DNA of 64,000 nucleotides from a virus (taxonomy: Duplodnaviria > Caudoviricetes). Positions 27,339 through 48,978 of the stretch are shown one piece after another (the first letter of the stretch is position 1; each line of letters starts with the position of its first letter). The DNA lies in IMG/VR virus record IMGVR_UViG_3300045972_000152, positions 1,134 through 65,133 of that record, one strand, 5' to 3'. A program made the position numbers and the translations under genes. The notes beneath the pieces were generated by a model. That model did not search any database. It was given only the letters and a program-made list of their open reading frames with translations, and was not told where the DNA came from.

Positions 27339-28379
27339 TTACTTGCGTTCTGCGAGGTACTCCGTGCGGAGTTCGTGGTCGGTGTCGTAAACGTGGGTCC
27401 ACGCCTTTTCGATGGTGCCGAGGGTGGGGTTGGTCTTCAACTCCTCCTTGGCCTTCTGGGTGATCTTGTCGGCGGCGGTGACACCGTTGGTGTTATCACC
27501 GTTATCGCGGCCAGCTTCTTTGAAGAGGCCACCGGTCTTGATACGTGCATCAGCGGCCTTCAAAACATCGAAGACCTTACCGGCGAGGTCTTTGTCCTTC
27601 TTGGCGATGGACTTCAGGAGGTCACCGATTTCCTCCACCTTGCCGACCGTGCCGATTGCAGCGGCCTTCCCGATGTATTCGCGGGTCAGTTCGCCGTCCT
27701 GCATCTTTTCGATGAGTTCGCTGTCCGCTTCGGCTTTTTCCACGATTGCCAGCAGGGCCGGAGACAGGGCCGACTTGTCGATGGCGGCTTCCTTGGTGGT
27801 CGGCATTTTCTGGCCGCAGGTCTTGCAGGTTTCCCCGGCAACGGGTTTGGCCTTCAGGGTTTCGACTTCGCCCTTCAGGGTTGCGTTTTCGGACTTCAGT
27901 GCGGTTACTTCGGCCTGTGCGTCATCGCGTTCTTTCGTGATCTTTGCCAACGGCATGTTCTCATCCCCCTTTGTGAGTGTGGTCATTGCTTCGCAGAACT
28001 GGGCAATGGTTGCTTGAATCATTGATGTTTTGTCAGCGGAGGGGTCATTGACAATGGAAGATATCGAATCCTCCAAAGTGTAGACCAAATCCCACATCTG
28101 ACTACGAATTTCGCGGTTGGCGACTATTACATCGAACATGACCGCATCACCATCGCCTTTAACGATGAGGTCTTTGTTTTCGTGGAGCCACTTAGCAAGA
28201 GCTTCTTCCTGCTCGTTACCAACGTACTCCTTGCCAAGGGAGATAATGGAAGGTTCACGTTTGATCTTCAGCAGCACAACGTCTGCTTCCGGGTTATCTC
28301 CGTTGCCCACGAACGATATCTCGTTCAGGACCACCTTGGACAGCCGCTCTTTCGGGGTTACTGCCGTTGTCCTCGCCAT
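27339..28379 (-). CDS. scaffolding protein, probable internal start at 27956
   Basis: EISFVGNGDNP N-terminal segment, coiled coil; internal SD AAAGGGGGA plus ATG, same SD as MCP. Confidence 0.75.
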   Translation of the reverse strand: MARTTAVTPKERLSKVVLNEISFVGNGDNPEADVVLLKIKREPSIISLGKEYVGNEQEEALAKWLHENKDLIVKGDGDAVMFDVIVANREIRSQMWDLVYTLEDSISSIVNDPSADKTSMIQATIAQFCEAMTTLTKGDENMPLAKITKERDDAQAEVTALKSENATLKGEVETLKAKPVAGETCKTCGQKMPTTKEAAIDKSALSPALLAIVEKAEADSELIEKMQDGELTREYIGKAAAIGTVGKVEEIGDLLKSIAKKDKDLAGKVFDVLKAADARIKTGGLFKEAGRDNGDNTNGVTAADKITQKAKEELKTNPTLGTIEKAWTHVYDTDHELRTEYLAERK

Positions 28380-28380
28380 G

Positions 28381-28812
28381 TTATAGTGCCTCCACTTTTC
28401 CGGTACCGCCGATACTGAACATCGACAGTCCGCCTTTTTCGCCCTTCAGGCCCTTCTGCACTTTCTCAAGAAGGTCAGGGTCGTTGATCCTCATTCCGAT
28501 GAACCATGCCTCAATCGGCTCACCATCTTTCATCAGTTCGATGCCAAGAGCGTCCTGAACGTCCTGATCGAAGACCAAGGACTCAACTAACTCTGCCGCC
28601 CCCTGAGTTTCAGAATCGTGGCTTTCAGCCCCGATACGGCAGTCAGTCACGAATTGATGGGCAGTTTTTCGAACTTCGTCGATACCCCAAATCTGCTTGG
28701 AGTGGTCAACTACCGGCTCACCGCCCTTCTTGGACACATAAGCAAACCCGTAGGCAACCTTTGTATCCTCTGCAACTTTCGTAATCCTGAATGTCTTTTG
28801 AACATTAGCCAT
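28381..28812 (-). CDS. prohead serine protease (XkdF-like)
   Basis: AYGFAY, ESH, LVES, W, MFSIGG motifs. Confidence 0.8.
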   Translation of the reverse strand: MANVQKTFRITKVAEDTKVAYGFAYVSKKGGEPVVDHSKQIWGIDEVRKTAHQFVTDCRIGAESHDSETQGAAELVESLVFDQDVQDALGIELMKDGEPIEAWFIGMRINDPDLLEKVQKGLKGEKGGLSMFSIGGTGKVEAL

Positions 28813-28899
28813 GTCTGCTATCTCCTTTGACTGTTGATGCCCTTACGTTATATTTTTATTTTAGTGAACCAAATGTTCATTTTCGCCTTTTGTGTCTAT

Positions 28900-29904
28900 T
28901 TAAAATTTATTACCAATTTGTCCTATCACAAGTACACAACGACAGTTAATAAATCCGGGGTTACGGGTGCCGGGACCGGTCACTAAACCATGGGGTGTGA
29001 CAAAGTAACCTCCGATTTTTACACCGTTTGGATTCATCGAAGGAATGGGTTGGTGGGTTTGGCGTACCCGTGCATCACCAGCAGTCAACCAAAACTGTCG
29101 ATCTATCTCGTCACTCAAGAATCCAGCATCCCGCGCTTGCTGCCAAAGTTCAAGCTGGCCGTTATTGACGGCGTTAAGAGATTCGGTACGTGCAATATCA
29201 AGTGCGCGCTTATTCACCAAAGAGACATAATACCGTTCAACTAGATTATCTATTTCAGCATCAGAAAGGTGACCTATTTTCATGTGCCTACGAATAACAG
29301 ATTGATCCACCGCGCTCAAACGTCTTTCATCAGGAGGGGTAAAACCGAGTATCTGTCTGGTTTCAAGTTGTCGCCTGAAGTTCATGACCGCAATGGCCTG
29401 AGAATCGGTCAACCCGATAAGTTGTCGTATCTCATAAACCTGCTTCGCAGGAGGAAGGTTGTCAGCCAAAGAACGGGCAATAAGCGACCTCACCCCTTGC
29501 TTAGTGGTATCGGTAATCTCCTGCACCATTTCTGCTCCGTCCTTGACCATAAAGTTAACGGCTCGCTGGTTCAAGGAGTTGAAGGCCAACGCTGTTTGAA
29601 TCGGTAGTGGAAGTCCCGATAATGCTGTTATCGCTCCTACACTAAAAACGTCACGGGTCAGTTCAGTGAACACATAATGAGTTGGACCCATACCGATACC
29701 AAATAGCAGATTAGACAAATCATCAACATGAGTAGCTGCAATTGCCGCATCAGTATCCCCATTTGACAACGCAACAGAAAGCGCATCAACATCAACTAGC
29801 TTGGAGCGCAGTTCGTTAATAGCCTGAACGGCGGCTGTCTTCAGCTTGGGTACCTGAGAATCAGCCGCCGCAAGAATTACCGCCTCTTTAGTCTTATCGG
29901 ACAT
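28900..29904 (-). CDS. Mu gpF / SPP1 gp7-like minor head protein
   Basis: RALDIARTES, W.TAGDARVRQTH, INCRC. Confidence 0.85.
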   Translation of the reverse strand: MSDKTKEAVILAAADSQVPKLKTAAVQAINELRSKLVDVDALSVALSNGDTDAAIAATHVDDLSNLLFGIGMGPTHYVFTELTRDVFSVGAITALSGLPLPIQTALAFNSLNQRAVNFMVKDGAEMVQEITDTTKQGVRSLIARSLADNLPPAKQVYEIRQLIGLTDSQAIAVMNFRRQLETRQILGFTPPDERRLSAVDQSVIRRHMKIGHLSDAEIDNLVERYYVSLVNKRALDIARTESLNAVNNGQLELWQQARDAGFLSDEIDRQFWLTAGDARVRQTHQPIPSMNPNGVKIGGYFVTPHGLVTGPGTRNPGFINCRCVLVIGQIGNKF

Positions 29905-31393
29905 GTCGCTTCACCGCTCCGATCTTGGTACTTCCGGATGTCCTCTTCTGTCCTTTTCCCGGCTTGCCCTGAACTGTCTTATCACCACCCCCCGGATTGT
30001 TGTTGTTAACGTTGCCGTTTGTGGCAGCAAGGTTACCGGCTTCAATCCGCTGTTCGATGAAGTCCATGGGAGTGATTTCCTCTTCCGGGTCGGAAGGGAT
30101 ATCCAGAACCTCACGAATCTTAGTTTCGACAGTCTTATCAGGAATAAGAGCACCTACGCCAACGAGTTTGTAGATAGCGTCAATGAACTTGGACATTTCG
30201 GCTTTCTCGATATCTCCCGGAACTAGAGTCGGCCAATACTCAGGTTCGATGTCGTTAACCATCATCAACTGCGGAATTGCCTTTTTATTGAAGACGCTGG
30301 CAATTCCGTCAAGCCACGCTCCAAGACTTATAGCGAAGAGGTCCGTCTTATCGCTCGACAGGGCGAAAGAACCAACTTTACTTTGACCTAGAAAGATAAA
30401 GTCGGCCACAACCGTCATGGCAATTCGCTTATCATAACGGTCAACTATCTGGCTGGTGTCGAACTGCCGCTGGCCCCCGGTGCTCAGAAGTTCAAGCTTG
30501 TAAAGCTCATTTCCGTCCGCATCGTAAACAAGCGGAAAGATAACGCCCTCCTGCTCATCACGGCGAATGTTCGTGGCAAGAGCCTTGAGAGAGAGGAGGG
30601 TTGCTTTTTCTTCGGGGGTAGCGTCTTCAGCAAGAAGACTTGCCGGAACCTTGATAACTACCAGACCGGCTAGGTCGCGCTCAATACCGATACCCTCAAT
30701 CTCCTCAATCCGTTTCTTGAACAGCCAAGAACGGTAACTGTTACGAAGAATAGAACGACCCATCGGACTGTTCTTATAAGACTGCGTGCGAAACAGAAGA
30801 ACTTTATCCATCGGTATTTTGACTTTCGTACCAATGGGAGGCAACTGTTCGATGGCAACCAAATCACCGTAGGTGTTGCTATTCGGGTCGGTGTCGAAAA
30901 TCCATTGCCAGATAGTTTCCTGAGCGCGAAGAGGGAGTTTGCGCCAGCCGATCTTACCGTCATTGAATTTACTGTGATAGGATGGATTGCTTTCCTTTAC
31001 TCCCCCGCGTACCTTATAGACTGTCTCAAGAGGCGCAAAGCCAAAAGTTAGCATGGAAAGGATTTCAGATATCATATCCTCCCAAGAATGTTCCATATCA
31101 CCCATACACTCGGTCAGGAAGTCAGCGGCCTCAACTGCAAACGCCTCATTGCTGGCCGGTGTGGACTTCCACTTGACCCTACGAAGCAGCTTTTCGATAA
31201 CAAAAAAGATTGCTCCGATGGTGGGATCGTTGTCCCGCATTTCGGCGTAGACTTTGATACCTTTTAGCCCCGCTAACTGCTTTAGGAACTCTTCGGATAT
31301 CTGATTACCGAAAATACGAAGTCCAGTGGAACCTATCTCCCGCATACTAGCTGCGGGACGCGACTTGGGGGATACTGCTGTAGTTCTAGCCAT
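29894..31393 (-). CDS. portal protein
   Basis: between TerL and Mu-F; Y.EMRDNDP, P.GRSILR, GIGIERDLAG, GSFALS. Confidence 0.9.
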   Translation of the reverse strand: MARTTAVSPKSRPAASMREIGSTGLRIFGNQISEEFLKQLAGLKGIKVYAEMRDNDPTIGAIFFVIEKLLRRVKWKSTPASNEAFAVEAADFLTECMGDMEHSWEDMISEILSMLTFGFAPLETVYKVRGGVKESNPSYHSKFNDGKIGWRKLPLRAQETIWQWIFDTDPNSNTYGDLVAIEQLPPIGTKVKIPMDKVLLFRTQSYKNSPMGRSILRNSYRSWLFKKRIEEIEGIGIERDLAGLVVIKVPASLLAEDATPEEKATLLSLKALATNIRRDEQEGVIFPLVYDADGNELYKLELLSTGGQRQFDTSQIVDRYDKRIAMTVVADFIFLGQSKVGSFALSSDKTDLFAISLGAWLDGIASVFNKKAIPQLMMVNDIEPEYWPTLVPGDIEKAEMSKFIDAIYKLVGVGALIPDKTVETKIREVLDIPSDPEEEITPMDFIEQRIEAGNLAATNGNVNNNNPGGGDKTVQGKPGKGQKRTSGSTKIGAVKRHVR

Positions 31394-31395
31394 GG

Positions 31396-32997
31396 TTACA
31401 CGCTCCTAAAGATGTTGGTTTTGGTCAAATCAGCAAAATGGGGAGAGGCGATTGTCGGGCCGCGTTGTCTACGCTCGCGTACCCGTTTTAGATACATACT
31501 CATGGGGTCGATTGTATCATCATGTTCACCCATGGGGAACTGCATACATTCCTCTTCGAAAGGTTGTATCCAGTTAGCATGTAGTTTGCCTTCGGGAATT
31601 TCCACATAACAAGTGGCATCTTCAGGAATCCAAACCGTACCAGCTTCGATAGCTATGGACTCGTTTTCCATACGAACTGTTTTGCTGAAGGAACCGGGGT
31701 CGATACCGATAATATTGAATTTAGTTTCCTCCTTTAAACAGGCAATGAGAGCTATGCCGGAAGACTTATCCTCTATCAGTATTTCATGTGGACGCCATAT
31801 CTGGCAAAGGTTCTTTGCTTGGCGCTTCAGCTCGGGGAAAGCGCACTTCTTTCGCCACATATAAATGAGATAGTAGCCAGTAGCAGTTTCGACCCAGACC
31901 TCACACACCGAATAGTCGTTAAGCTCGTTCTCTTTGCTGGCAGTATCGAATACTAGAGATATCCGTTTCCACGATTTTCGGTCAGGGGCAACCTTCCACC
32001 GCTTGAAGCTCAACATTGGGATGATGCCGCCCTCACGGGGGGAGGGACGTTGTTGCAACTGACCGGCAGAGGCGTAGGTACCGAGTGCCTGTTTGAGTAC
32101 GTTTATCTCAGGACGGCCAAAGCGTTCCGGCCAAAGCAGTTCACCCTCTTCCTTCCGGGGGTCACCCTTCCAGCCGTGAAAAGTTCTTAGGCTCATCTTG
32201 CGTTTACTTTCAAGCTCGTACTCAGCCGGAAGTATCAAGTAGGTATATTCATCGCCATACTTACGCATGATATGACCAGATAGATCAAGATAATGTGTTC
32301 TCTGCTGAATAGATACCAGCACCCCGGTCTTAGGGTCGTTGAAACGAGACTGCATTGCCTCATCGAACCAGTTGTTCGTGGCCGTTCTGGTTGTTTCGGA
32401 TTCGGCCTCACGCACGTTGTTAGCGTCATCAATGATGATGTAGTCGCCGCCCTCTCCGGTTGCCGTACCGTCAACAGAGGTAGCGATTCGGTAGCCGCCT
32501 TTATCGTTATCGAACCTTACCTTGGTATTCTGGTCCGAGGTAAGCCTAACAAGGTTACCCCAGCGTTCTTGATATAGTGGACTGTCAATGATACGGCGGC
32601 ACTTCACACCGTCACGAATGGAGAGCGAATGCGCGTAAGACGCGAAAAGAAACTGAAGCGCCGGTTTCTTTATCCACGCCCACGCGGGAAAACCTACGGA
32701 GATACCGAGAGATTTCATGTGGCGGGGAGGGATATTGATAAGCAAACGCCGTATATCACCAGTAAGTGTAGCGCTCATGTGCTCGCAGATGGCGTCGATA
32801 TGCCAGCCATGGACATAGGGGTGCGGGTCAATCGCCGTCCACATTTGGCGCAGGAAGTGAGACAGGGACTTTTCGGCTAATACCTTGTCTATTACCTCAG
32901 TCGGAGTGCTAAGGAGCCTTCTTGCCCTTAGAATGTCCTCTGAAGTAAGCTCTACTTGCGGGGCCTGTTGACGGCTTACGGGTGTCGTTCTTGACAT
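31396..32997 (-). CDS. terL: terminase large subunit
   Basis: INIPPRHMKS Walker A, IIIDD Walker B, QQRP, FDTA and HDDTID nuclease motifs. Confidence 0.95.
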   Translation of the reverse strand: MSRTTPVSRQQAPQVELTSEDILRARRLLSTPTEVIDKVLAEKSLSHFLRQMWTAIDPHPYVHGWHIDAICEHMSATLTGDIRRLLINIPPRHMKSLGISVGFPAWAWIKKPALQFLFASYAHSLSIRDGVKCRRIIDSPLYQERWGNLVRLTSDQNTKVRFDNDKGGYRIATSVDGTATGEGGDYIIIDDANNVREAESETTRTATNNWFDEAMQSRFNDPKTGVLVSIQQRTHYLDLSGHIMRKYGDEYTYLILPAEYELESKRKMSLRTFHGWKGDPRKEEGELLWPERFGRPEINVLKQALGTYASAGQLQQRPSPREGGIIPMLSFKRWKVAPDRKSWKRISLVFDTASKENELNDYSVCEVWVETATGYYLIYMWRKKCAFPELKRQAKNLCQIWRPHEILIEDKSSGIALIACLKEETKFNIIGIDPGSFSKTVRMENESIAIEAGTVWIPEDATCYVEIPEGKLHANWIQPFEEECMQFPMGEHDDTIDPMSMYLKRVRERRQRGPTIASPHFADLTKTNIFRSV

Positions 32998-32998
32998 G

Positions 32999-33733
32999 TT
33001 AGACTCCTATCGTCGTGGCTTCATAGGAATCAAGAAGATCATCAATCGGCGTCATTTCGATAAGCTTGGGATTAGTCGGCATTGCGTTATTGGCATGCAC
33101 TACCATATCGCGCAAGGCTATCAATTGTTCCTCGTTCATGTTATCGAGGTCGGCGCTTACGCTAATTTGGGTATTTGTGATAGTTTGTTCACCTTTTACG
33201 TTAACGGTCATCTTCCAATCTTCGGGACGGCGGTTGGTAAGCCAGAAAGTGATAGCCTTAATATCAGGAAGCACTATCTTCTCAACAACGCTAACCTCTT
33301 TGGCCGGAATCTTGACTACCTTTCCAGCATCGTCCTTCTCACGTAGATAGATAGACTTGGTGGTACGCTCGGCGACCGTATAACCCAACGCACGTTTCAG
33401 CAACGCCTGTTCTACATGCTGGGTATCGAATTCAAATTTACCCTGCCGAACAGCGTCACGGAACTCCTCATGGGTCCGCATCCACATATCAACAGTCTTT
33501 TTGCCGACACCAAAGACTCGCGCAAGCTCCTCACTGGTAAAGCCGCGCTCCTTGCATAGGACATTTGCGATGTGAGGGAACCTGACCGGATCATATACAG
33601 CCGGTTGTCCACGCTCCCCCGTAGTGGCGGGAATCTGAATGTCAGGGCGGCGGCGTCCCTCTGCTTTCGGTCTTTCCCGCTCGCTTATGACTACCGGACC
33701 TTTTTTGGTGGAAATGATGGTCGTTCTTGCCAT
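32999..33733 (-). CDS. terS: terminase small subunit
   Basis: N-terminal HTH, ALLKRALGY, PDIKAITFWLTNRRPEDW; probable start MARTT at 33733. Confidence 0.88.
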   Translation of the reverse strand: MARTTIISTKKGPVVISERERPKAEGRRRPDIQIPATTGERGQPAVYDPVRFPHIANVLCKERGFTSEELARVFGVGKKTVDMWMRTHEEFRDAVRQGKFEFDTQHVEQALLKRALGYTVAERTTKSIYLREKDDAGKVVKIPAKEVSVVEKIVLPDIKAITFWLTNRRPEDWKMTVNVKGEQTITNTQISVSADLDNMNEEQLIALRDMVVHANNAMPTNPKLIEMTPIDDLLDSYEATTIGV

Positions 33734-33846
33734 GTCTATCACCTATTCGGAGAAATAAATAGTACAACGATGTTGGTGCATTAACACATCTATTTTAGAG
33801 AAAATACAAATTGTTCATTCTGGTCTTTTGTGACTGTATTTTTTTC

Positions 33847-33875
33847 TTGCTTTTTGTTTTCACCTCAGTTACTAT
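33847..33875 (+). promoter_or_regulatory. sigma70-type promoter
   Basis: TTGCTT-17 bp-TACTAT with T-rich upstream sequence. Confidence 0.65.
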
Positions 33876-33881
33876 GCGGAC

Positions 33882-34589: not shown

Positions 34590-34607
34590 AAAGAAAATTT
34601 TAGGGGG

Positions 34608-34841: not shown

Positions 34842-34874
34842 CCACCTCACTCTCCCCCACTCCTCCTGCTATTC

Positions 34875-34922
34875 GCCCCCATGTAAAAGCCTACTACAGG
34901 CCGAATATGGGGGCCTCTTTTT
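34875..34922 (+). terminator. intrinsic terminator
   Basis: gcccccat...atgggggc stem followed by ctcttttt. Confidence 0.55.
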
Positions 34923-34950
34923 ACCTACCGTACACCACTTTGTTCCCAGT

Positions 34951-35121
34951 ACCCCCCCCCCCTACCCCCCCATACTAATTTCTCCCGTATGATATCTTTT
35001 TTCCGTAGTACCCCCCCCCACCACCTTCGATAACTATTTTAGTTACCTTGTGTTGACTCCGTGCATACCCCCGCCTCAGCATGTAACCCCTTCCCCCCGA
35101 TGAAAAAAGAAGGGGTGGGGG
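34951..35121. repeat. cluster of poly-C (poly-G on minus strand) tracts
   Basis: C11, C7, C9 and shorter runs; two runs preceded by AGTA. Confidence 0.8.
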
Positions 35122-38444: not shown

Positions 38445-39443
38445 ATGAAAGCATCGGATTTGGCAAGTGTTCTTTCCATCATGGTAGCAGGAAAACGCCC
38501 TGTATTGGTTACAGGTGCCCCCGGCATCGGAAAATCGGATTTAGTAGCAAGCGTTGCCGGAAATACCGGGGCCGATTTGGTAATCATGCATCCGGTTGTT
38601 TCGGACCCGACAGATTACAAAGGTTTGCCGGGCATTGTCGATGGTGCGGCGGAATTCCTTCCCTATGGCGAATTACGTAAAATTCAGCACGCCGACCGCC
38701 TGACAATCTGTTTTCTTGACGATATCGGGCAAGCAGCTCCCAGCGTGCAAGCGGCATTAATGCAACTCCTTTTGGCGCGGGAAATAAACGGCGTCAAGAT
38801 ATCGGACCATGTAACATTCATCGCGGCAACTAATCGCCGTGAGGACCGCGCCGGAGTAGGCGGGATGCTTGAGCCGGTTAAAAGCCGGTTCACGGGCGGC
38901 ATCGTCAACCTTGAGGTGGATGTTGAGGATTGGATTAATTGGGCGCTTTCGGCTGATTTGCCGATTGAGGTAATCGCCTTTGTGAAGTTCAAACCGGCGA
39001 TGCTCCATGACTTCAAAGCAACGGCCGATTTGATCAACTCTCCTTGCCCCCGCACGGTTGCCGCTGTAGGAAAGGCGTTTGAGCTGGGAATACCTCAGCA
39101 ATTGGAGTTCGAAGTTTACAAGGGCATCGCCGGTGAAGGGTTTGCATCGGAGTTTCTTGCTTTCGTAAAAATCATGAGGCAACTTCCTAACGCCGATGAA
39201 ATTCTGTTGGACCCCGACAGCGTGCCGATGCCTGAGGACCCCGCCGTTTTGTATGCTCTTTCCGGCTCACTAGCAAGGAAAGCAAGCGAAACCACGATGG
39301 AAAGAATTCTGAAGTTTGCCGACCGGATGCCGCCGGAATTTCAGGTCCTTTTGATCCGGGACGCTGTGAAACGCGACAGAAAATGCACGCACACAAAAGC
39401 CTATATCCAATGGGCACAGAAAAACGCTAGCGTACTCATTTAA
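38445..39443 (+). CDS. MoxR-like AAA+ ATPase
   Basis: GAPGIGKS Walker A, CFLDD Walker B, VQAALMQL, AATNR, SRF, PCPR. Confidence 0.88.
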   Translation: MKASDLASVLSIMVAGKRPVLVTGAPGIGKSDLVASVAGNTGADLVIMHPVVSDPTDYKGLPGIVDGAAEFLPYGELRKIQHADRLTICFLDDIGQAAPSVQAALMQLLLAREINGVKISDHVTFIAATNRREDRAGVGGMLEPVKSRFTGGIVNLEVDVEDWINWALSADLPIEVIAFVKFKPAMLHDFKATADLINSPCPRTVAAVGKAFELGIPQQLEFEVYKGIAGEGFASEFLAFVKIMRQLPNADEILLDPDSVPMPEDPAVLYALSGSLARKASETTMERILKFADRMPPEFQVLLIRDAVKRDRKCTHTKAYIQWAQKNASVLI

Positions 39444-39529
39444 CGGTGCAGGGGTGTTATGCTGGGAAAGGTAACACCCCGCCCTTTCAACCTACTACAA
39501 CCGAAATTTAGAGCATACAGGGGGATAAA

Positions 39530-40399
39530 ATGACACCGGTAACCAATGGCGTGAGCCTTACAGAAAAAGCAATGCTTGTCTCCCTTTCCATTTCATCATG
39601 GCAGGGTCGGAAACTTGATAAAACCGCAACCAAAAAGGTACAGGTTGACAATGGGGCCGCCGATGGTACGGGGCGATACCACAAAAACACCGTAGCTAAG
39701 GAGGCACTAAAGGATATCGCGGCAACCATCGGGGCCGCTCGGACGTTCCACTATGCCAATACCCTGCCATGGAACGATTTAGGCCAGCGCATTTTACCAT
39801 CTGCAAACTTCCTGCCCTATACTGAGGAAATGCGGAAACTTAAAACCAACTTCGAAAACGCCGTGATGAAGTTTGTTGCGGATTACCCGCAGCACGTACA
39901 AGAGGCACGCGCCTTGCTGGGAACGATGTATAATTCTGAAGACTACCCGCAGCAAGGCCAAATCGCGGGGCGTTTCGCTTTCGAATTCTACGTTGACCCG
40001 ATACCTAACGCTGGTGACTTTCGGGTTACCCTTCAGTCGGATGAAGTGAACACCATACAGGCACAAATCACAGCAAGGGTAGAAGCGGCACAAACCGCCG
40101 CTATCGGTGACCTTTGGGACCGCCTGAAAGAGGTACTGGGAAAGGTTGAGGAAAGGCTATCAGACCCGGAGGCTATCTTTAGGGATAGCCTGATAGATAA
40201 CATGGTAGAGCTAACGGAGCTTGTACCGCGCCTGAACTTTACCAATGACCGGAAACTTTCGCGTACCGTTTCCATGATAGAAGATCGGATCAACACCCTT
40301 GACCCCTCAACCCTGAGAAACAACCTAGTTGAGAGGAAAGCGGCTGCAAAGGACGCTAAAGCTATTCTCGATATCATGGCCGGTTATTGCGGCAACTAG
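39530..40399 (+). CDS. conserved helical protein (DUF3150-like) in AAA+/VWA operon
   Basis: AMLVSLSISSW.G.K.D, TLPWND.G.RILP, IFRDSLIDN. Confidence 0.65.
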   Translation: MTPVTNGVSLTEKAMLVSLSISSWQGRKLDKTATKKVQVDNGAADGTGRYHKNTVAKEALKDIAATIGAARTFHYANTLPWNDLGQRILPSANFLPYTEEMRKLKTNFENAVMKFVADYPQHVQEARALLGTMYNSEDYPQQGQIAGRFAFEFYVDPIPNAGDFRVTLQSDEVNTIQAQITARVEAAQTAAIGDLWDRLKEVLGKVEERLSDPEAIFRDSLIDNMVELTELVPRLNFTNDRKLSRTVSMIEDRINTLDPSTLRNNLVERKAAAKDAKAILDIMAGYCGN

Positions 40400-40403
40400 G
40401 GCA

Positions 40404-40449
40404 GCTTATAGGCGGGTTTAAGGTGACAGATTAAACCCCCTGTATAACC
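40404..40449 (+). repeat. conserved intergenic hairpin, copy 3
   Basis: gcttata-ggcgg-gtttaa-ggtgacaga-ttaaac-cccc-tg-tataacc. Confidence 0.85.
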
Positions 40450-40485
40450 TTTCCTAACGTCAACCCCAACAAAGGAGCTAAAACC

Positions 40486-41700
40486 ATGGATACCACGGCA
40501 CGTCAAACAATCGTTAAGGCAAGGGCGGCATTGATCCTTGACCATCCATTTTTTGGGGCGCTTGCCTTGCGCCTGTTGCTCAAAGAGGACACTGGATGCA
40601 AAACATCATGGGTTGACGGTGTAACCCTTGGTTATAATCCGGTTTATATCAATTCCCTTCCCATGGATGAAGTAAAGGCGCTTGTCTGCCATGAGGTGTT
40701 ACACCTTGCGCTTGCCCATCATACCCGCCGCAATGATCGGGATTTTGATGAATGGAACGAGGCGTGCGATTTCCCCACCAATCAAACCGTTCATGATGTG
40801 GGTATGCCGATTGGTAAGGGTTGGCTTTTCGACCCGCTCTATAAGGATTTAAACTCTGAAACCATCTATGACAAACGGCACCGGGAAAAACAACAGGGCG
40901 GCGGCAATGGTCCCGGTAATCAGCCGGGACAACCGCAACCGGGACAACCGCAACCGGGACAACCGCAACCGGGACAGGGGAAAGGGCAAGGCACCCCGCA
41001 ACCGGTACCGGGAGAAGTTAGGGATTTACCGGGAACGGATGGACAACCGGCAACCCAGACCCAGAAAGATATATCAGCGCAGGATTGGCAAGTTGCCGCA
41101 ACTCAGGCGGCGCAACAGGCTAAAGCTTGTGGCAGGCTTCCGGGAAATATTGAGGAGCTTATCGAAAAGCTGAATGAGCCTAAAGTTAACTGGAAAGAGG
41201 CGTTACAGCGGTTTGTTGAGCAACAGGCTAAAAATGATTACAGCTTCCGTCGTATCAACCCCCGCTTTGCCGGTCGCGGGGTGTGCCTCCCCTCTCTGCA
41301 CTCTGAAGAGTTGCCCCCCATCCGGGTTGCGATTGATACCAGCGCATCGGTTAGCAAGGAGGAGTTGGAGCAATTCGCAAGTGAGATTGACGATATATTG
41401 TTTCACTATCCCACTACCGTAGAAACCATCTATTGCGATACGAGGGTTAACGGCACCGAAACCTTTAGCCGGGAGAATCGCCCTGTAAAGCTTAATGTAA
41501 AAGGCCGGGGCGGCACCCGCTTTAGTCCTGCATTTGAGCATGTGGAAAAGCTGGGAGAGGAAACCACCTGCTTGATATACCTATCTGATATGGACTGTGA
41601 TGATTTCGGTCCCGCTCCTGATTATCCGGTACTGTGGGTACAGACGATGGGAAAAGCTAAAAAGGTTCCTTTCGGTGAACTTATCAGGATGAACAAATAA
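40486..41700 (+). CDS. HEXXH metallopeptidase-like plus VWA domain protein (DUF2201-like)
   Basis: HPFFG, HEVLH..AHH.RR, IDTSAS MIDAS-like motif, GRGGT.F.P, YLSD. Confidence 0.85.
   Translation: MDTTARQTIVKARAALILDHPFFGALALRLLLKEDTGCKTSWVDGVTLGYNPVYINSLPMDEVKALVCHEVLHLALAHHTRRNDRDFDEWNEACDFPTNQTVHDVGMPIGKGWLFDPLYKDLNSETIYDKRHREKQQGGGNGPGNQPGQPQPGQPQPGQPQPGQGKGQGTPQPVPGEVRDLPGTDGQPATQTQKDISAQDWQVAATQAAQQAKACGRLPGNIEELIEKLNEPKVNWKEALQRFVEQQAKNDYSFRRINPRFAGRGVCLPSLHSEELPPIRVAIDTSASVSKEELEQFASEIDDILFHYPTTVETIYCDTRVNGTETFSRENRPVKLNVKGRGGTRFSPAFEHVEKLGEETTCLIYLSDMDCDDFGPAPDYPVLWVQTMGKAKKVPFGELIRMNK
40924..40976. repeat. 15-bp coding tandem repeat (PGQPQ)
   Basis: unit ccgggacaaccgcaa, about 3.5 copies. 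Confidence 0.9.
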
Positions 41701-41942: not shown

Positions 41943-42608
41943 TATCGTGCATATCTGTACCGTAGGAATCATGCAACTTGATATTATATTTGCTTTGCTG
42001 TGTGAAGCGAATAAAGCCGGGGTTACTTTGGAGTTTTCCCCTATCCCGGCAAGAAGGAATAGTATCGGGGCAAGTTGCGCCGTAACGGCAACCGGCGCTT
42101 TTGACTGCACGCTTTCGGAGTACCGGGAGACGGCGCAAAAGATTGTCAGGGCAAGGCACTAAATCGGCCCTACAGCGGGACTTTGCCCCGTGGTGAAGGG
42201 TAGGGCAAGGGCCGGTTATACGGCACCCCTCAGAAAGGAGATATCCGCAATGAAAGAAAAGCATAATCTGGCCGCTGTAGTGGAGCAAATGGAAACGCCC
42301 ACCAATGAGCCGCCCGAGGTGACCGCAAAGGTTCACCGGCTCATGACAACCAGCAATTTCAACCTACAAGGTATCGAGTCAAAGTGTGAGGTGATCCGGG
42401 AAACTCCACTTTGTACCGGTTAGATGGTGTTTGTTAATCGTGCCTGTACTCTCGCACACATCATGCATTCCGACGACGTTAACGATGGTACCTATATCAG
42501 GATGAAGATACCCAACAAGATAAAGGGTGCTCATCCCAACTACCTGCAACGCTATTTTTACAACCGGATGGTTAGCCGTTATATCATCTAGGAAAGGGGC
42601 AAGGACAA

Positions 42609-42814
42609 TGGAAGTTAAACCTGTACCGATGTGGGCGATGGAGCAAATTCAAGCTTTTGGTTTTGTTAATCTGACCAATCGTATCATCACGAAGAAAGAC
42701 ATAAAATTTCAGGAAAAACAGGTGAGGGAAATAGAAGAATCGGCCGCAAAGGAAAATTTGGACCCGATGCAGTATATGCAAAAGTACAAAATCAGCTTGA
42801 TCCCCCATTATTGA
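42609..42814 (+). CDS. hypothetical protein
   Basis: MEVKPVP start with AAGGA SD inside ORF 42527..42814. Confidence 0.5.
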
Positions 42815-42839
42815 TAAACAATAGAAAGGAGGATATGTA

Positions 42840-43208
42840 ATGGCAAAGTATCAGGTCATCGTTGGTAATATCGGAACCGTATATGATGGCGATTCACGGG
42901 TAAAAGCTGGGGCGGAATTTGCTAACTACAAAATCGACAGCATCCGATTCATTGGGAGAGCGGCGGGAGAGGATATAATTCTAATGATGGATGGTGAGCC
43001 GTTGGAGGAATACATTGGGAGCCGCAGCACCGTTGCGATTGATGTGCCTCGTCCCATGGACCGGGAAAAGATGATAAAGTTTCTCATCGGACTTCACGGA
43101 TCAATCGAAGCGCACCATGCTACCAATCTTTGTAATTCACAATACCTGTATCAGAAGAACCCGGAACTTCTGCGGGTGATACAGTATCTCAGAAAAGAGG
43201 AGGGTTAA
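42840..43208 (+). CDS. hypothetical protein
   Basis: SD AAAGGAGG; YQVIVGNIGTVYDG. Confidence 0.65.
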   Translation: MAKYQVIVGNIGTVYDGDSRVKAGAEFANYKIDSIRFIGRAAGEDIILMMDGEPLEEYIGSRSTVAIDVPRPMDREKMIKFLIGLHGSIEAHHATNLCNSQYLYQKNPELLRVIQYLRKEEG

Positions 43209-43210
43209 AT

Positions 43211-43774
43211 ATGAGAAGAACAATCGTAGATATCAGACGGCGTATCGCTGCAATCAACGAAAAGCTTCCCAACAAGTTCAAGTTGGAATCGGGGCGCTGT
43301 GAGGGTGGTTTCATTATCGAAAGCAACCGAGGAAGCAAAACCGAGCAGTATCACCGTTCCATTAACGAAATGGATATATTTCTTGACGGTTACGACCGGG
43401 GAATTGATGCAATGGAATTCCTTAACAAGGAAAACGCAGCAGTCGCAGCGAGTAACTATTTCATCGGTTATATCTGTAGCGGTTGTGGTTTGGAGGGGAA
43501 TCTTTACGCGCACACCGACAACAACGGGAAATGCCCCGTATGCGGCGGAAAGCTGGTTGCTAAAAACCCTCTGCACAAACCTCTGTATGACCTTGTAAGG
43601 CTGTTCCTTGACGGTAGAAACTACAACACCCAAAACCCCTACACCCGCCCCGAAATCAAGGAGGCATTACAGGCACTCAAAGAGGCAACCGGTTTTTCTG
43701 GGGATTGGAGAGACGCCGCCCCCCCTCCACTAATGAAAATAAAGCTTGACAGGCTGAAGCCGACTAATCTATAA
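43211..43774 (+). CDS. hypothetical protein with Zn ribbon
   Basis: CSGC...CPVCG. Confidence 0.65.
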   Translation: MRRTIVDIRRRIAAINEKLPNKFKLESGRCEGGFIIESNRGSKTEQYHRSINEMDIFLDGYDRGIDAMEFLNKENAAVAASNYFIGYICSGCGLEGNLYAHTDNNGKCPVCGGKLVAKNPLHKPLYDLVRLFLDGRNYNTQNPYTRPEIKEALQALKEATGFSGDWRDAAPPPLMKIKLDRLKPTNL

Positions 43775-43787
43775 GGGAGGCACGGCC

Positions 43788-43862
43788 ATGATTAAAGCGA
43801 TCATTGTAACGTACATCACACTAAAAATAATACTTCTTGTTGCTAACTCTTTCAACCGATAG
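43788..43862 (+). CDS. 24-aa hydrophobic peptide
   Basis: SD AGGGAGG; MIKAIIVTYITLKIILLVANSFNR. Confidence 0.45.
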   Translation: MIKAIIVTYITLKIILLVANSFNR

Positions 43863-43926
43863 CCACGTTCAACATACAATTCAATAGTCTCCTGACCACG
43901 ATGTGATAAAAGGAGGTATCAGACAC

Positions 43927-44211
43927 ATGGCACGAACAACGCCAATCTCCCCGCGACCCGTTACAGTTACTGACTCCGAACCCCAGAAGAAAGAACGACC
44001 CTTAGTTTACTTGATATGCACGGTACACTCTATGCGTGCGCCCGACAGAACAACGGCGCAATGGTGGAATCATCTTTCCTACCTCTGGGAAAAGTACAAG
44101 ATCAGTGATGAAGCGGCGTTTGATGCAATTGCGGCGGGGCCTTCCCGTTGGAACGATATCATTAACGAAATGCATTCACCCTACAACCCCGAGAAAAAAG
44201 GAGCAGGATAA
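43927..44211 (+). CDS. hypothetical protein starting MARTTPISP
   Basis: SD AAGGAGGT; start within ORF 43903..44211. Confidence 0.65.
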   Translation: MARTTPISPRPVTVTDSEPQKKERPLVYLICTVHSMRAPDRTTAQWWNHLSYLWEKYKISDEAAFDAIAAGPSRWNDIINEMHSPYNPEKKGAG

Positions 44212-44394
44212 ATGACTAAAATTAAAGTTGGCCTTGAGAAACACATTCACCATGTCCCGCAGGTAGCTATCATTGAAATAGAATTGGAACTTGAGGCTAA
44301 GGCACCCCGCGACCTGAAGACCAAGGATATCGAAATAGCTTGCCATGATAAGCATCCCGGCTGGAGGGTTACCGGCTGGATGATATTGCACTAG
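44212..44394 (+). CDS. hypothetical protein
   Basis: SD AAGGAG; operon context. Confidence 0.55.
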   Translation: MTKIKVGLEKHIHHVPQVAIIEIELELEAKAPRDLKTKDIEIACHDKHPGWRVTGWMILH

Positions 44395-44404
44395 GGGGTT
44401 TAAG

Positions 44405-46186
44405 TTGGACAAGGACAAGCTCGCACTTATCAAATCTAGGTATACCACAAAGCCCGTGGAACAGGCACCGAGGGGGGCAAACCCCGCCCCCCTGTACTTT
44501 GACCGCCTTGCCTCTCTTGACCCTTCTGGGCGTATCCTTATGCGCTTTAAGAAGCAAAAGGTGTTGGTTGAGTGTGTCAAGAAGATCACCCGCCGCCACT
44601 TCGAAGGGGAGCGCAAGGGTTATGTGTATTGGAGCGCACCATTTACCCTTGAAGCGGTTAGATATCTTCGCACGGGTAATTTTCGCCTGACTCCTGAACT
44701 GGTGGAGAAGGAAAGTGCAGCAACCCGCCCCATTAAGCTTGACATGAATTTTACCATCACCGGCCTACAGAGAGAACTACGCCACTTCCAGTATGAAGGG
44801 GTTGCTTTTCTTGAGGCGATGTTAAAGGAACACCCCGGCGCTATCATAGGTGACGAACCGGGACTAGGAAAAACCGCACAGTTTTTGGCCTACCTGCAAC
44901 GACACCCCGAAGAACGTACAGCCGTTATCGTATGCCCCGCCACACTCAAACTCAATTGGGCAAAAGAGATTTTCCTGTGGATGATACCCACACCGGAGAA
45001 TCGCGTATATCTTCTATCCGGAATGACCCGCCGTACTTGTGAGGAAATCACCATGTATCGGGGCCGCTTAGTGATACGCGAATGCCCTATTCCTGCCAAA
45101 GGTATTTTCATTATCAACTATAACATAGTAATCGACTGGTACGAGGTGCTTTTATCCCTCAAACCGAAAATCATAGCGTTTGATGAAGCACAAGCACTGA
45201 AGAACAAAAAGACTATGCAGACTGACGTTTGCATGAAACTGGCAACAGGTAACCCGGATGATGGTTGGCGCGGAATTCCCAAGCGTATCCCCATTACCGG
45301 TACCCTGTTTGAAAACAACGTGCAGGAATTGTTTAACTCCCTTTCCATGGTGCGACCCGACCTGTTCACCTCATGGTTTAAGTTCAACGAGCGATATAAT
45401 AAGGAAATGAGGACTAAGGACAGGACACTGGAATTGCATAAGCTTATCAAGCTGGCTTGCATTCGAAGGAAAAAGCGGGACGTGTTGAAAGAGTTGCCGC
45501 CTAAGATCAAATCGGTAATTCCTCTGAATATCACCAACTCTTCAGAGTACATGCAAGCAGAGAATAACTTTCTATCGTGGATCAAAGGTACCAAGGGTCA
45601 AGAAGCCTCAGACAGAGCAATGCTAATTAAAGGGTTGGCAAGGATCAACGCCCTAAAAGAAATCGCCGTGAAAGGCAAAATAGACGCTTGTATAAAGTGG
45701 ATTGAGAACTATTTAGAGTCTGGGGAAAAGTTGGTAGTATTTGCGGAACATACTTGGATTGTTGATAAGGTATGCAAGCATTTCAAAGGCCGTGCTGTGA
45801 TGATTGACGGTAGGATAACCGGAGTCAAGCGCAACGAAGCGGTTGAACGTTTCCAGACTGACCCGAATATCGTGCTATTCATGGGACAGATTAAGGCGGC
45901 AGGTACCGGCTTGACCTTGACGGCAGCAAGCGCAACCTGTACCCTCCAACTTGTATGGAATCCGAAGGTACACGAACAGGCTGATGATAGGGTGCATCGA
46001 ATAGGACAGGAAGACAGCGTAAATAACTACTATCTAATATCCTCTGATACAATAGAAGAGGATTTAGCATACGGTCTTGATGAGAAGGATATCGAAGCAG
46101 CACTTATCATGGACGGCGAAGAAGTGGTAAGCGTCAATCTACTCTCTTCCATTATGCGCCGTATGAAGGAGAGACACGGCCTATGA
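44405..46186 (+). CDS. SNF2-family helicase/ATPase
   Basis: GDEPGLGKT, FDEAQ, ITGT, GTGLTLT, QADDRVHRIGQ. Confidence 0.92.
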   Translation: MDKDKLALIKSRYTTKPVEQAPRGANPAPLYFDRLASLDPSGRILMRFKKQKVLVECVKKITRRHFEGERKGYVYWSAPFTLEAVRYLRTGNFRLTPELVEKESAATRPIKLDMNFTITGLQRELRHFQYEGVAFLEAMLKEHPGAIIGDEPGLGKTAQFLAYLQRHPEERTAVIVCPATLKLNWAKEIFLWMIPTPENRVYLLSGMTRRTCEEITMYRGRLVIRECPIPAKGIFIINYNIVIDWYEVLLSLKPKIIAFDEAQALKNKKTMQTDVCMKLATGNPDDGWRGIPKRIPITGTLFENNVQELFNSLSMVRPDLFTSWFKFNERYNKEMRTKDRTLELHKLIKLACIRRKKRDVLKELPPKIKSVIPLNITNSSEYMQAENNFLSWIKGTKGQEASDRAMLIKGLARINALKEIAVKGKIDACIKWIENYLESGEKLVVFAEHTWIVDKVCKHFKGRAVMIDGRITGVKRNEAVERFQTDPNIVLFMGQIKAAGTGLTLTAASATCTLQLVWNPKVHEQADDRVHRIGQEDSVNNYYLISSDTIEEDLAYGLDEKDIEAALIMDGEEVVSVNLLSSIMRRMKERHGL

Positions 46187-46494
46187 AAGACAAAATACAA
46201 GACGAACAGGATATAATTCAACGCTGGCAACTTTGGATAAAAGGACAGCAACCCTTTTTATTCATTGCCGGTAGGGTATTTACCTCTTCAGCAATATCAA
46301 GTATGGCATGGATGCGTGTCTTTGAGTGGAGGGACAACGGGGCGAAATACCATGTTGATGACTTTCCTTTGCATGACGGGAAAATCTACATGCCGTCACT
46401 TATCATCCATGCGAAGCTTGATCCCTATCACCCAGACGTTCAACGGCTGTTAGCTCATGTGGTTACTGAAAGGATTGAGGAGGGTAGGATATGA
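46183..46494 (+). CDS. small protein, VTxR[LI] group
   Basis: ATGA-coupled; ends HVVTERIEEGRI. Confidence 0.65.
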   Translation: MKDKIQDEQDIIQRWQLWIKGQQPFLFIAGRVFTSSAISSMAWMRVFEWRDNGAKYHVDDFPLHDGKIYMPSLIIHAKLDPYHPDVQRLLAHVVTERIEEGRI

Positions 46495-46931
46495 AAGGCA
46501 AAGCAGCAAGGATCATTGAAAAGGTTTTTGACAAAGCGGGTTTCCTCACTGTCGGTACGCGGGAGTTTCGTCGGGTTGAGAAGGAAAGCAAGTTTAAGAT
46601 ATATGAGGTTACTAACCCGAACAAAAATAAGTACATCGGATTGTACTGTAAGTTCACACCTATTCGCTTCACGGTAGATACTCAAAAAACTGAGGACATG
46701 AAAACGTGGGGGGAGCGGTTCATTGACGACGCAAGTATTTCCGATGGTGATTTGTCGGTTCTTGTTGTTACTCATCGAATAACCGAATCCGATAAACCGA
46801 ACGAGCCTCAGTTCATAAAGTTAAAAGCAGGAGTAGAAGTTAATATCACGTTCGAAAGTAACCTCGACTCCCTACGCTTCTTGCAAACTCACAGACCCAT
46901 GGGTATAGCTAACATGGATTTAACGGTGTAG
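46491..46931 (+). CDS. small protein, VTxR[LI] group, with GIY-YIG-like fragment
   Basis: KIYEVTNPNKNKYIG; LVVTHRI. Confidence 0.65.
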   Translation: MKGKAARIIEKVFDKAGFLTVGTREFRRVEKESKFKIYEVTNPNKNKYIGLYCKFTPIRFTVDTQKTEDMKTWGERFIDDASISDGDLSVLVVTHRITESDKPNEPQFIKLKAGVEVNITFESNLDSLRFLQTHRPMGIANMDLTV

Positions 46932-46933
46932 TC

Positions 46934-47269
46934 ATGATATTCGATAGAGCCAAGTTCATTAGGAAGACTGAGCCAACGGAGCTTTCCAAACTTGTAGAGC
47001 AAGCTGATAATATTTTTGAAACCCGCTATAAGGACACCCGCCCACGGTTCGAAGTGGGGTTGAGGAAGTTCATAACAATACGTAAATTCAAAATAGGTCA
47101 TCTGAGTGTTCAGGTATTTGAGGAATTCGAAACCGGCAATGTCTTACTGGGTGAATATCATTCTGGCTCTTGGAGTTTGGAGTTTTTAGCAGACAGACAC
47201 CTAAGTAAAGAAGAGATACAGGTTTTTCTCGTTACCGAGCGATTACTGGGGGCCATTGATGCTAATTAA
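46934..47269 (+). CDS. small protein, VTxR[LI] group
   Basis: ends FLVTERLLGAIDAN. Confidence 0.65.
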   Translation: MIFDRAKFIRKTEPTELSKLVEQADNIFETRYKDTRPRFEVGLRKFITIRKFKIGHLSVQVFEEFETGNVLLGEYHSGSWSLEFLADRHLSKEEIQVFLVTERLLGAIDAN

Positions 47270-47468
47270 ATGTATGTTCTGCGGTGAAGATATACAGCCA
47301 AAGAAATATTCAATAGTTGAAATCAAGAGCGGGGCCGTGGCTGAGTTGTTAGGATTCGATATAGGTAATGCAAAGTCCATGGACGTTAGGCTACACCCTG
47401 ACTGTGCCCAAGTTGTAAAGGTTACCATCCGAATTCACAGCGAACAGATTGGCTTTACTTTATTCTAA
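47256..47468 (+). CDS. CxxC-HxxC Zn finger protein, VTxR[LI] group
   Basis: CMFC...HPDCAQVVKVTIRI. Confidence 0.6.
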   Translation: MMLIKCMFCGEDIQPKKYSIVEIKSGAVAELLGFDIGNAKSMDVRLHPDCAQVVKVTIRIHSEQIGFTLF

Positions 47469-47477
47469 GGAGTTGAT

Positions 47478-47666
47478 ATGAATTGTCCGGTATGCAGGAA
47501 AGAGGTCAAGACCACGGGACGCAAGGCTAAGGGTTATTCGCGTGTTGCTAACACCTTCTTCCCCTCAATGATGGATATACCTTGGGAAGAGTCACACCAT
47601 CTGATTCATTCCCATTGCAAGGCGGCGGTGAATGTGACCCACCGCCTGTTGGAGTCCACAAGATGA
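47478..47666 (+). CDS. CxxC-HxxC Zn finger protein, VTxR[LI] group
   Basis: CPVC...HSHCKAAVNVTHRLL; SD AAGGAG. Confidence 0.65.
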   Translation: MNCPVCRKEVKTTGRKAKGYSRVANTFFPSMMDIPWEESHHLIHSHCKAAVNVTHRLLESTR

Positions 47667-48391
47667 AATGCCCAGTATGCAAAAAGACCCTTCAGAAGCT
47701 CCAAAAACGGCCACCGTGGGCATATTCACCGGGGAACTACCGGCAACGCCAGAAAGACGAACAGGAGCGCCTAAAGCAATCCATGCTCGCCTATACAGAA
47801 GTGAGGACTGCGTATGACGATGTGCTTGGTGTACCTCATAAGGAAACTCCATATTACATGCACAACGAGTGCGCCGATGCCTACTTTGCAACGGTGCGTT
47901 TGCTTAGATCAACCGGAGAACTCAAGAGCCGCGCTGAAATACTAGCCGAACAACTGCTAGAATTTTCAAATCAAAGAGCTATCAAAATGATGAACAACGG
48001 CATTTTTGGTAAAATCGCCAACTCAAGTTTTAATAGTATCGTAAACATTGGCATGTTTCCTGAGCAACCTCCGTTAAACGATACAGTAGACGCTTTAGCT
48101 TACGTTACTTACGCCCAGAACACTCATCGGTTGCATGGAAGTAGCGGAAGTGTAATTATGATAGATGACGTTGAAACCGAATCAACCCCGGAAGACCGAG
48201 CTAAAGTTAAAAAGTGGTATGATGATGTTCTTACGAAGCGTAGGGCGCAGGTTCTTTCCACTAACCACGATTTTCTAAAAGGAACTATCGACTTCGAAAT
48301 CAAGATCGACCATGACAAGAACTGGGATACCAACAATGCAGATATTATAAAGAACATAAAGGACGCACTTGAAAAGCTAAGGGGGATGTGA
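47663..48391 (+). CDS. Zn finger plus patchwork of PolB-, terminase- and capsid-like motif fragments
   Basis: probable start ATG 47663 (ATGA overlap); CPVC...HNEC, ATVRLL, then motif look-alikes (see findings). Confidence 0.75.
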   Translation: MKCPVCKKTLQKLQKRPPWAYSPGNYRQRQKDEQERLKQSMLAYTEVRTAYDDVLGVPHKETPYYMHNECADAYFATVRLLRSTGELKSRAEILAEQLLEFSNQRAIKMMNNGIFGKIANSSFNSIVNIGMFPEQPPLNDTVDALAYVTYAQNTHRLHGSSGSVIMIDDVETESTPEDRAKVKKWYDDVLTKRRAQVLSTNHDFLKGTIDFEIKIDHDKNWDTNNADIIKNIKDALEKLRGM

Positions 48392-48978
48392 TGGCAAGGA
48401 CAACAGGAAAACCCGCAACACCGGCAGCACCTACCATTTCGCGGCACATGGAATACAAGGGATTTACCATCGCTCGCATGAGTAACGGTGAAACTTGGTA
48501 CTATGAGCCGGGAGAGCCGTACTATGTAACACCGGACGTTCCGACAGCAAAAGGGGAAATAGACGCGATGTTAGACGAACCGAAAGAGTACACCGGCAGG
48601 GGCCACGGTGGATACATCTATGGACCGCCCGAGTGGTGCAAGCGTAGGGTGCAGTTCGACGGAGAGCCGGGATATTGGTGGGCTGACGCCATACTCTGCC
48701 ACGGCTCCTGCAAAGAGAACCATCATTGTCCCGTGTTCACAGAGTTCATGGCAGGACAGCGGGACAGGATTAAACTGATGAATACCGAAAAAGCCGGTCC
48801 CGAGTGTCCTCACTGCAAAAGTCCTCTTCAGGTGGAGTATCCCAATCATACCGCCGTTTACGGGTGTGGCACTATCTACAGTCGAATTTCCAGCGATTAC
48901 AAGCAACATTGCCCCGTTAAAGGCAAGAAGAAAGAACCGGAAGCCGAACAGCCACCCAGACGCCGCCGCACCACTTAG
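48391..48978 (+). CDS. Cys-rich hypothetical protein starting MARTTG
   Basis: multiple Cys clusters; ends RRRRTT. Confidence 0.65.
   Translation: MARTTGKPATPAAPTISRHMEYKGFTIARMSNGETWYYEPGEPYYVTPDVPTAKGEIDAMLDEPKEYTGRGHGGYIYGPPEWCKRRVQFDGEPGYWWADAILCHGSCKENHHCPVFTEFMAGQRDRIKLMNTEKAGPECPHCKSPLQVEYPNHTAVYGCGTIYSRISSDYKQHCPVKGKKKEPEAEQPPRRRRTT

Follow-up and report, generated by a model that had tools for sequence, protein, structure and literature searches.

A short Arg-Thr tag on packaging, head-core and some DNA-repair proteins of uncultured phages looks like a portable address or a DNA-gripping hook

Terminase, portal and scaffold are the best-studied assembly proteins of phages and are usually thought to find each other via folded surfaces. 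Short peptides are known as addresses, docking ends or DNA-binding motifs in other settings. The capsid targeting sequence (CTS) of phage T4 is carried by internal proteins and by Alt and is removed by the prohead protease, the clamp-binding ends of T4 gp43, gp33 and gp55 and the acidic tips of single-stranded DNA-binding proteins (SSB) dock their carriers to a hub, and AT-hooks and histone-tail-like basic arms comprise a short Arg-centred motif within flexible basic segments, independent of its position. Two packaging proteins possess N-terminal arms that contact nucleic acid: in the complex of the HK97 small terminase (TerS) with DNA the arm lies in the minor groove, with Arg7 contacting a base and Ser8 and Ser10 bonding to phosphates (PMC11331095), and the N-terminus of the phi29 portal is required for binding of the packaging RNA (pRNA; PMC1636484). 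Here we analyze a stretch of 64,000 nucleotides (the window), which covers positions 1134-65133 of the 65,133-base uncultured virus record IMGVR_UViG_3300045972_000152 and in which six genes start with one and the same peptide, M-[A/S]-R-T-T (the tag). An earlier note on this DNA had pointed to these six starts, and all of them are present, together with the R-R-R-R-T-T it had seen at the end of one of the proteins:

27339..28379, minus strand: scaffold-like gene (PHROG 17741); M-A-R-T-T encoded at 28365-28379
29894..31393, minus strand: portal of the Mu type (Pfam Portal_Mu, PHROG 113); M-A-R-T-T encoded at 31379-31393
31396..32997, minus strand: large terminase, TerL (PHROG 38, Pfam Terminase_6C); M-S-R-T-T encoded at 32983-32997
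32999..33733, minus strand: small terminase, TerS (PHROG 309); M-A-R-T-T encoded at 33719-33733
43927..44211, plus strand: ORF43927, a small early open reading frame (ORF) of 94 aa with a strong ribosome-binding site; tag encoded at 43927-43941
48391..48978, plus strand: ORF48391, a Cys-rich, zinc-ribbon-like early protein of 195 aa; N-terminal tag encoded at 48391-48405
48964..48975, plus strand: C-terminal copy of the motif, R-R-T-T, the last four codons of ORF48391

A Shine-Dalgarno-like site precedes the ATG of each of the six tagged starts by 6-9 bases. Annotation of the window proteins with Pfam and PHROGs gave no family match for ORF43927 and ORF48391, and public automatic gene calls begin both at an internal Met, ORF48391 at residue 20 (P0038) and ORF43927 at residue 36 (P0043). 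Since the upstream starts are preceded by ribosome-binding sites and orthologs bear the tag as well, we place the starts of both genes at the tagged positions. The scaffold gene is located directly downstream of an XkdF-type prohead protease gene; at 27339-28812 (minus strand) protease (143 aa) and scaffold are encoded by two genes, with TAA-C-ATG at their junction. Fusions of both seem to exist, because the proteases of PHROG 3017 comprise 402 residues, of which 35-155 form the protease part. The scaffold itself shows a strongly conserved block of about 25 residues immediately after the tag.

The N-terminal enrichment that the earlier note had suggested to check is borne out. Translated in six frames, the window contains [A/S]-R-T-T ten times, with six of these copies directly behind an ATG. 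Our own simple gene caller predicted 85 genes for the window and 62, 112 and 107 genes for its relatives G001, G007 and G008. In the window, 6 of the 85 genes have R-T-[T/K] starting at residue 2 or 3, while 0.10 such starts would be expected from the internal tripeptide frequency (Poisson P about 2e-9). The relatives comprise 4/62 (G001), 7/112 (G007) and 6/107 (G008) starts of this kind, each against an expectation of about 0.1, and at positions 2-5 R-T-T and A-R-T clearly outnumber all other tripeptides. The carriers are unrelated to each other, as had been claimed: BLASTP comparison of the six tagged proteins gave no mutual matches at E 1e-4. To call the tag phage-wide, however, goes too far, since it is found on about 6-7% of the genes, and the capsid, tail, polymerase, MuF and protease proteins are without it. 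Three weaker cases did not hold either: orthologs of the gene at 245 start differently in three of three relatives, the sole ortholog of the gene at 55468 starts differently, and the ORF at 60202 was not retained by the gene caller and had no ortholog among the genomes at hand.

Like in T4, one short N-terminal peptide is found on several unrelated proteins of one phage, as an address would be (6 of 85 genes in the window, 4-7 genes in the three relatives). In T4, by contrast, the peptide is borne by contents of the head and is cleaved off, whereas here a cleavage site is not evident and most carriers do their work outside of the head: TerS, TerL, a RuvC-like resolvase, an UvsX-like recombinase and a DUF3150 protein are tagged, and only portal and scaffold are head parts. 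Given the T4 sequences and the N-terminal arms of the HK97 TerS (PMC11331095) and the phi29 portal (PMC1636484), the earlier statement that no equivalent is known was too strong. In the literature, covered mostly at the level of abstracts, we found no description of a tag common to terminase, portal and scaffold.

Selection acts on the peptide rather than on the DNA. Among 32 tags, chosen by the pattern R-T-[T/K], Arg is encoded by five of its six codons (AGA 20, AGG 4, CGT 4, CGG 3, CGA 1) and all four Thr codons occur, which confirms the synonymous differences noted before. Even between the close pair G001 and G002 the Arg codon of the scaffold changes from AGA to CGG, with the residue unchanged. 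If the six window genes are aligned from -50 to +30, they have in common only the ribosome-binding site and ATG-C--G-AC-AC. Because the Arg codons vary and the upstream DNA shares only the ribosome-binding site, we agree with the earlier note that the peptide is what is selected. A DNA repeat or a recent gene conversion can be ruled out, as nothing but ATG-C--G-AC-AC is invariant in this alignment. In its general form the motif consists of a small residue or Met, followed by Arg, Thr and then Thr or Lys, often with Gly next; in the window the residue behind it varies (A, A, P, I, P, G).

Relatives were gathered via portal- and scaffold-based scans, which led to a small clade of phages, all of them uncultured. 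Its 11 members form a clade with 100/100 support in a portal tree that was computed after removing the first 25 residues. The starts of the four packaging and head proteins are as follows:

Window: TerS MARTT, TerL MSRTT, portal MARTT, scaffold MARTT
G001 and G002: TerS MARTT, TerL MRTT, portal MARTT, scaffold MARTT
G007 (complete): TerS MGRTT, TerL MVRTT, portal MARTT, scaffold MARTT
G008 (complete): TerS MARTA, TerL MARTS, portal MRTT, scaffold MRTK
L039: TerS MARTK, TerL without tag, portal MGRTK, scaffold MARTK
L168: TerS not on the contig, TerL without tag, portal MARTK, scaffold MRTK

Retention in orthologs, on which the earlier note had made its proposal depend, was found for all six genes within the clade, at portal identities down to about 56%, because relatives of ORF48391 and ORF43927 carry the tag too. 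All six members of the ORF48391 family begin with M-A-R-T-[T/K], at identities down to 27-35% (BLASTP). In the ORF43927 family, P0044 (58% identical) has the same first 12 residues, and P0046 (38% identical) begins with the form of the tag that lacks Ala. A search of viral contigs gave no relatives of ORF43927 or ORF48391, and the protein Atlas no match for ORF48391. Of 36 scaffold homologs in a large protein database, 12 begin with M-A-R-T-[T/K] and most others with M-A-R and basic residues before the conserved block. A third subclade (L169, L171, L173) shows looser M-A-R/T-basic starts. Relatives farther off lack the tag, and portals of 55% identity or less possess acidic or neutral leaders. 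Amongst 136 more distant loci (1.49 Mb) only 14 starts match the pattern, three of them in the clade member L039, two in L053 and at most one in each other locus. Two candidate members were rejected: in Arthrobacter phage Waltz, whose portal is 43% identical, none of 19 genes shows a shared start, and L010, whose portal has a GTG-initiated copy of the tag, is placed outside the clade in the portal tree and shows no tag system.

Within the clade, the tag is portable. The DUF3150 ortholog of G008 possesses a tagged extension of 28 residues that is absent in the window and in G007, while G007 comprises a tagged RuvC-like resolvase and a tagged KTSC protein. Looser forms occur as well: the G008 resolvase starts with MSRRT, and UvsX-like recombinases begin with MARTS, MGRTS or MARVK. 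Furthermore, G008 encodes two paralogs of the window protein at 2550-3275 that combine an N-terminal tag with an SSB-tip-like end, D-[D/E]-I-P-F. The window protein itself (plus strand) is acidic (pI 4.4), is encoded downstream of SbcCD-like genes and ends with D-E-I-P-F; this type of end is kept in the orthologs of G001, G007 and G008. Pfam detected no OB fold in it; possibly it serves as the SSB of the phage or imitates an SSB tip.

Copies of the motif occur away from N-termini as well. ORF43927 has an additional internal R-T-T at residue 41. Among the five full-length members of the ORF48391 family three end with R-R-T-T, one with R-R-T-K and the G008 member with R-R-N-K-K, and the four R-R-T-[T/K] ends match the dialect of the N-terminal tag of the same protein. 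In three members, a basic linker holds an extra copy. The relatives also have [S/G]-[K/R]-R-T-[T/K] in further basic tails, amongst them that of the small head-module protein encoded after the capsid gene. This gene (25263-25868 in the window, minus strand) has a conserved part of about 60 residues at its start, with a G-E-Y-G-G motif, and a variable tail, which is long and acidic in the window and short, very basic and motif-bearing in G001, G007 and G008. Consequently, the idea of a linear tag stands, while that of a strictly N-terminal one does not. Peptide-level selection, unrelated carriers and conservation in orthologs make a shared linear tag the right kind of object: it is a short linear motif, selected as a peptide, specific for the clade, and it can be gained and lost by unrelated proteins.

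At N-termini the tag forms the free end of a flexible, basic leader of 10-45 residues, rich in Ser, Thr, Pro, Gly and Lys. The leader is about 45 residues long between the tag and the helix-turn-helix region of TerS and about 17 residues long ahead of the conserved body of the portal. If residues 2-21 are compared between 23 tagged and 294 other genes, the tagged leaders have a higher net charge (+2.8 vs. +0.6; P 2e-5), more polar or flexible residues (62% vs. 45%) and fewer hydrophobic ones (21% vs. 33%). TerL of L039 and L168, without the tag, also has a much shorter leader; since tag and most of the leader are missing together, the leader is an accessory. Motif, enrichment, conservation, portability and leader composition are thus direct observations.

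Based on the sequences, we tentatively favor the tag as a flexible basic nucleic-acid hook that would tether its carriers to phage DNA or else to a single common partner. Its Arg would reach into a groove of the DNA, while the adjoining hydroxyl residues would grip phosphates. Such a hook might keep its carriers on replicated phage DNA where packaging starts: on the one hand the proteins of concatemer maturation and packaging (recombinase, resolvase, TerS and TerL), on the other hand the pair that would initiate the procapsid (portal and scaffold) and the zinc-ribbon protein with its several copies of the motif. We infer DNA as the partner, and with it every consequence for assembly. Most carriers handle DNA, and the Arg is located in flexible, basic, low-complexity segments at the N-terminus, in linkers and at the C-terminus, as is the case for DNA arms and AT-hooks. 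DNA is moreover the simplest partner, as the carriers cluster around DNA maturation, packaging and the start of the procapsid. The AT-hook core R-G-R-P is absent, however, and Pfam gave no AT-hook match. In its R-T-K form the tag starts like histone H3, a likeness of four residues only. Closer is the arm of the HK97 TerS, likewise a flexible N-terminal segment of a TerS with Arg beside hydroxyl residues, there in the minor groove; in contrast to the tag, it is known from one protein, is folded against a helix and has another sequence, whereas the tag is shared by many unrelated proteins (PMC11331095). The N-terminal residues of the phi29 portal gp10 are required for binding a nucleic acid of the packaging motor, yet the partner is pRNA, one protein is involved, and no motif is known to be common to terminase or scaffold (PMC1636484).

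Several observations do not fit easily with a nucleic-acid hook. No tag is present on polymerase, helicases, primase, clamp or SbcCD-like proteins, and the leaders of the window are only weakly basic. Scaffold, DUF3150 and KTSC proteins are, to our knowledge, not DNA binders. In the 32 tags chosen by pattern, Arg is never replaced by Lys and the following Thr never by Ser, and the looser forms retain Arg, followed by Arg or Val (MSRRT, MARVK). Unspecific DNA tails are usually less strict, and the pattern would be equally compatible with a pocket in a protein. Within a genome, further residues are shared: R-T-T-x-[V/I]-[S/T]-P in the window, R-T-T-G-x-K in G007 and R-T-K-G in L039 and G008. Such genome-specific dialects, judged by inspection, hint at a protein reader that co-evolves with the tag.

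The tag could accordingly be a docking peptide for a single co-evolving protein hub of phage or host, which we consider possible, albeit doubtful. Hub candidates are the sliding clamp (57757-58773), the trio of MoxR AAA+, DUF3150 and zincin-VWA proteins (38445-41700, plus strand) and the portal vertex. Besides the dialects and the invariance of Arg and first Thr in the 32 pattern-chosen tags, a hub is suggested by the change of the second Thr to Lys, which concerns several proteins at once in two lineages of the portal tree (L039 with L168, and G008). Hubs for terminal peptides are known from the T4 clamp and SSB tips, which resemble the tag as short terminal motifs on many DNA-transaction proteins. 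The window encodes a clamp (PHROG 947) and the AAA+/VWA trio as candidate hubs, with which the carriers would be compatible, and its clade has an SSB-tip-like end, D-[D/E]-I-P-F, on one family of its own. However, the known clamp-binding peptides are hydrophobic, SSB tips are acidic-aromatic, and both are mostly C-terminal, whereas the tag is polar, basic and mostly N-terminal. For the trio, the DUF3150 subunit is itself tagged in G008, and each of the three complete genomes has retained intact zincin HExxH, VWA MIDAS and Walker A motifs. The trio is conserved in the two complete tagged relatives, G007 and G008, and was not found in two untagged records nor in the tagged G001, all three of which are incomplete, so that this distribution carries no weight. 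The family of the trio is far wider than the tag (1455 database matches at E 1e-20 or better). As a side note, named homologs of the zincin-VWA protein occur in Desulfobacterota, no more than a hint at the host. By the Met-aminopeptidase rule, the residues before Arg (A, S, G, V or none) would make Arg residue 2 of every mature chain; this argument is weak, because the codons for S, G and V are all one base from those for Ala. The motif also works away from a free N-terminus.

A more elaborate proposal, which we regard as unlikely, takes the tag for a lineage-specific address code that is read by a co-evolving phage machine, the MoxR trio or the clamp, and that gathers recombinase, resolvase, terminase, portal and scaffold at one site. 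If so, concatemer processing would be coupled to procapsid initiation, the R-T-T and R-T-K dialects would represent co-evolution of reader and tag, and the zinc-ribbon protein with its three copies of the motif would be an adaptor or a competitor.

That the tag is a site of modification or of regulated turnover, which would time or limit its carriers together, strikes us as improbable. One could envision phosphorylation of Thr, modification of Arg, acetylation of the N-terminus or a cut made by the phage zincin or another protease. The [K/R]-R-T-T tails resemble sites of basophilic kinases, the R-R-T-T C-termini look like products of a cut before Gly if compared to an internal R-R-T-T-G copy in a relative, and an apparently active metallopeptidase is encoded. 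However, Pfam and PHROGs revealed no kinase or transferase, and the variable residue after the motif in the window argues against such a site. Bacterial N-degrons expose L, F, W or Y at the mature N-terminus, with R or K as secondary signals. Since residue 2 of the tagged proteins is A, S, G, V or absent, their mature ends are predicted to be A, S, G, V or M, which are not such degrons.

Alternatively, the tag might be a by-product of efficient translation start, with an mRNA that is unstructured, A/C-rich and U-poor and an N-terminus that deformylase and Met-aminopeptidase process well, a poorly supported explanation that we hold to be rather improbable. Indeed, the first seven codons of tagged genes are A/C-rich and contain 7-10% T, compared to 21-27% in other genes, and the Arg and Thr codons of the window tags lean to A- or G-ending forms. 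In addition, E. coli EF-G (L196, fusA of E. coli K-12) is identical to ORF43927 in its first seven residues. This identity is probably due to chance; it shows as well that the sequence of the tag is compatible with a very highly expressed host protein. On the other hand, untagged genes have equal 5' codon bias, and the predicted folding from -30 to +30 is alike in six tagged and six untagged late genes (about -7.2 vs. -6.2 kcal/mol, with similar z-scores). No tag is present on the proteins of highest abundance (capsid, tail tube, decoration), Arg is retained through switches of codon family, and its codon takes different positions in forms with and without Ala. Moreover, copies of the motif are also found in basic linkers and C-terminal tails, which an effect on translation start cannot explain.

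Finally, a propeptide like the T4 CTS, which would load its carriers into the procapsid and be removed by the prohead protease, is highly improbable: the tag is indeed present on portal and scaffold, the protease gene lies between these two, and in relatives the tail of the small head-module protein encoded behind the capsid gene contains the motif, but no studied phage is known to have TerS, TerL, recombinase or resolvase among the contents of its procapsid, the tag is followed by no common cleavage motif, and MuF, protease and capsid protein are without it.

Regarding its genomic context, the window is siphovirus-like by annotation. The minus strand comprises the late module with TerS, TerL, the Mu-type portal, MuF, XkdF-type protease, scaffold, decoration protein, capsid protein, connectors, tail tube, a tape measure of 2128 residues and lysis genes. 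The plus strand contains early and replication genes, namely the MoxR AAA+/DUF3150/zincin-VWA trio, an SNF2 helicase, a primase, DnaC- and DnaB-like proteins, a radical SAM protein, the sliding clamp, RtcB and a family-B polymerase. Neither tRNA genes nor Rfam families were found in the window. Around the clamp gene, at 56634-60197 (plus strand), a radical SAM protein, a DUF6171 protein and the RtcB ligase are encoded; among the relatives G001, G007 and G008, an ortholog of RtcB is limited to G008, and the radical SAM gene is without ortholog. Between the divergent late and early modules, at 34850-35100, several long C runs occur on the plus strand (11, 7 and 9 C, and shorter ones), which are G runs on the strand of the late genes. 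The contig of G001 terminates in a run of 14 C on the matching side of TerS. The region could serve as a packaging site or an origin, or could form a structure.

Taken together, the short Arg-Thr tag on proteins of packaging, of the head core and in part of DNA repair resembles a portable address or a hook that grips DNA. Automatic gene calls miss such tags, as two of the six tagged genes of the window were called from downstream starts. The tag is conserved, portable and variable between lineages; as a code it would be easy to transplant and of use in engineered phages for loading or localizing proteins. For the phages themselves, a tag of five residues on terminase, portal and scaffold as well as on recombination enzymes suggests that some of them may employ a simple linear code for DNA maturation, packaging and head initiation.

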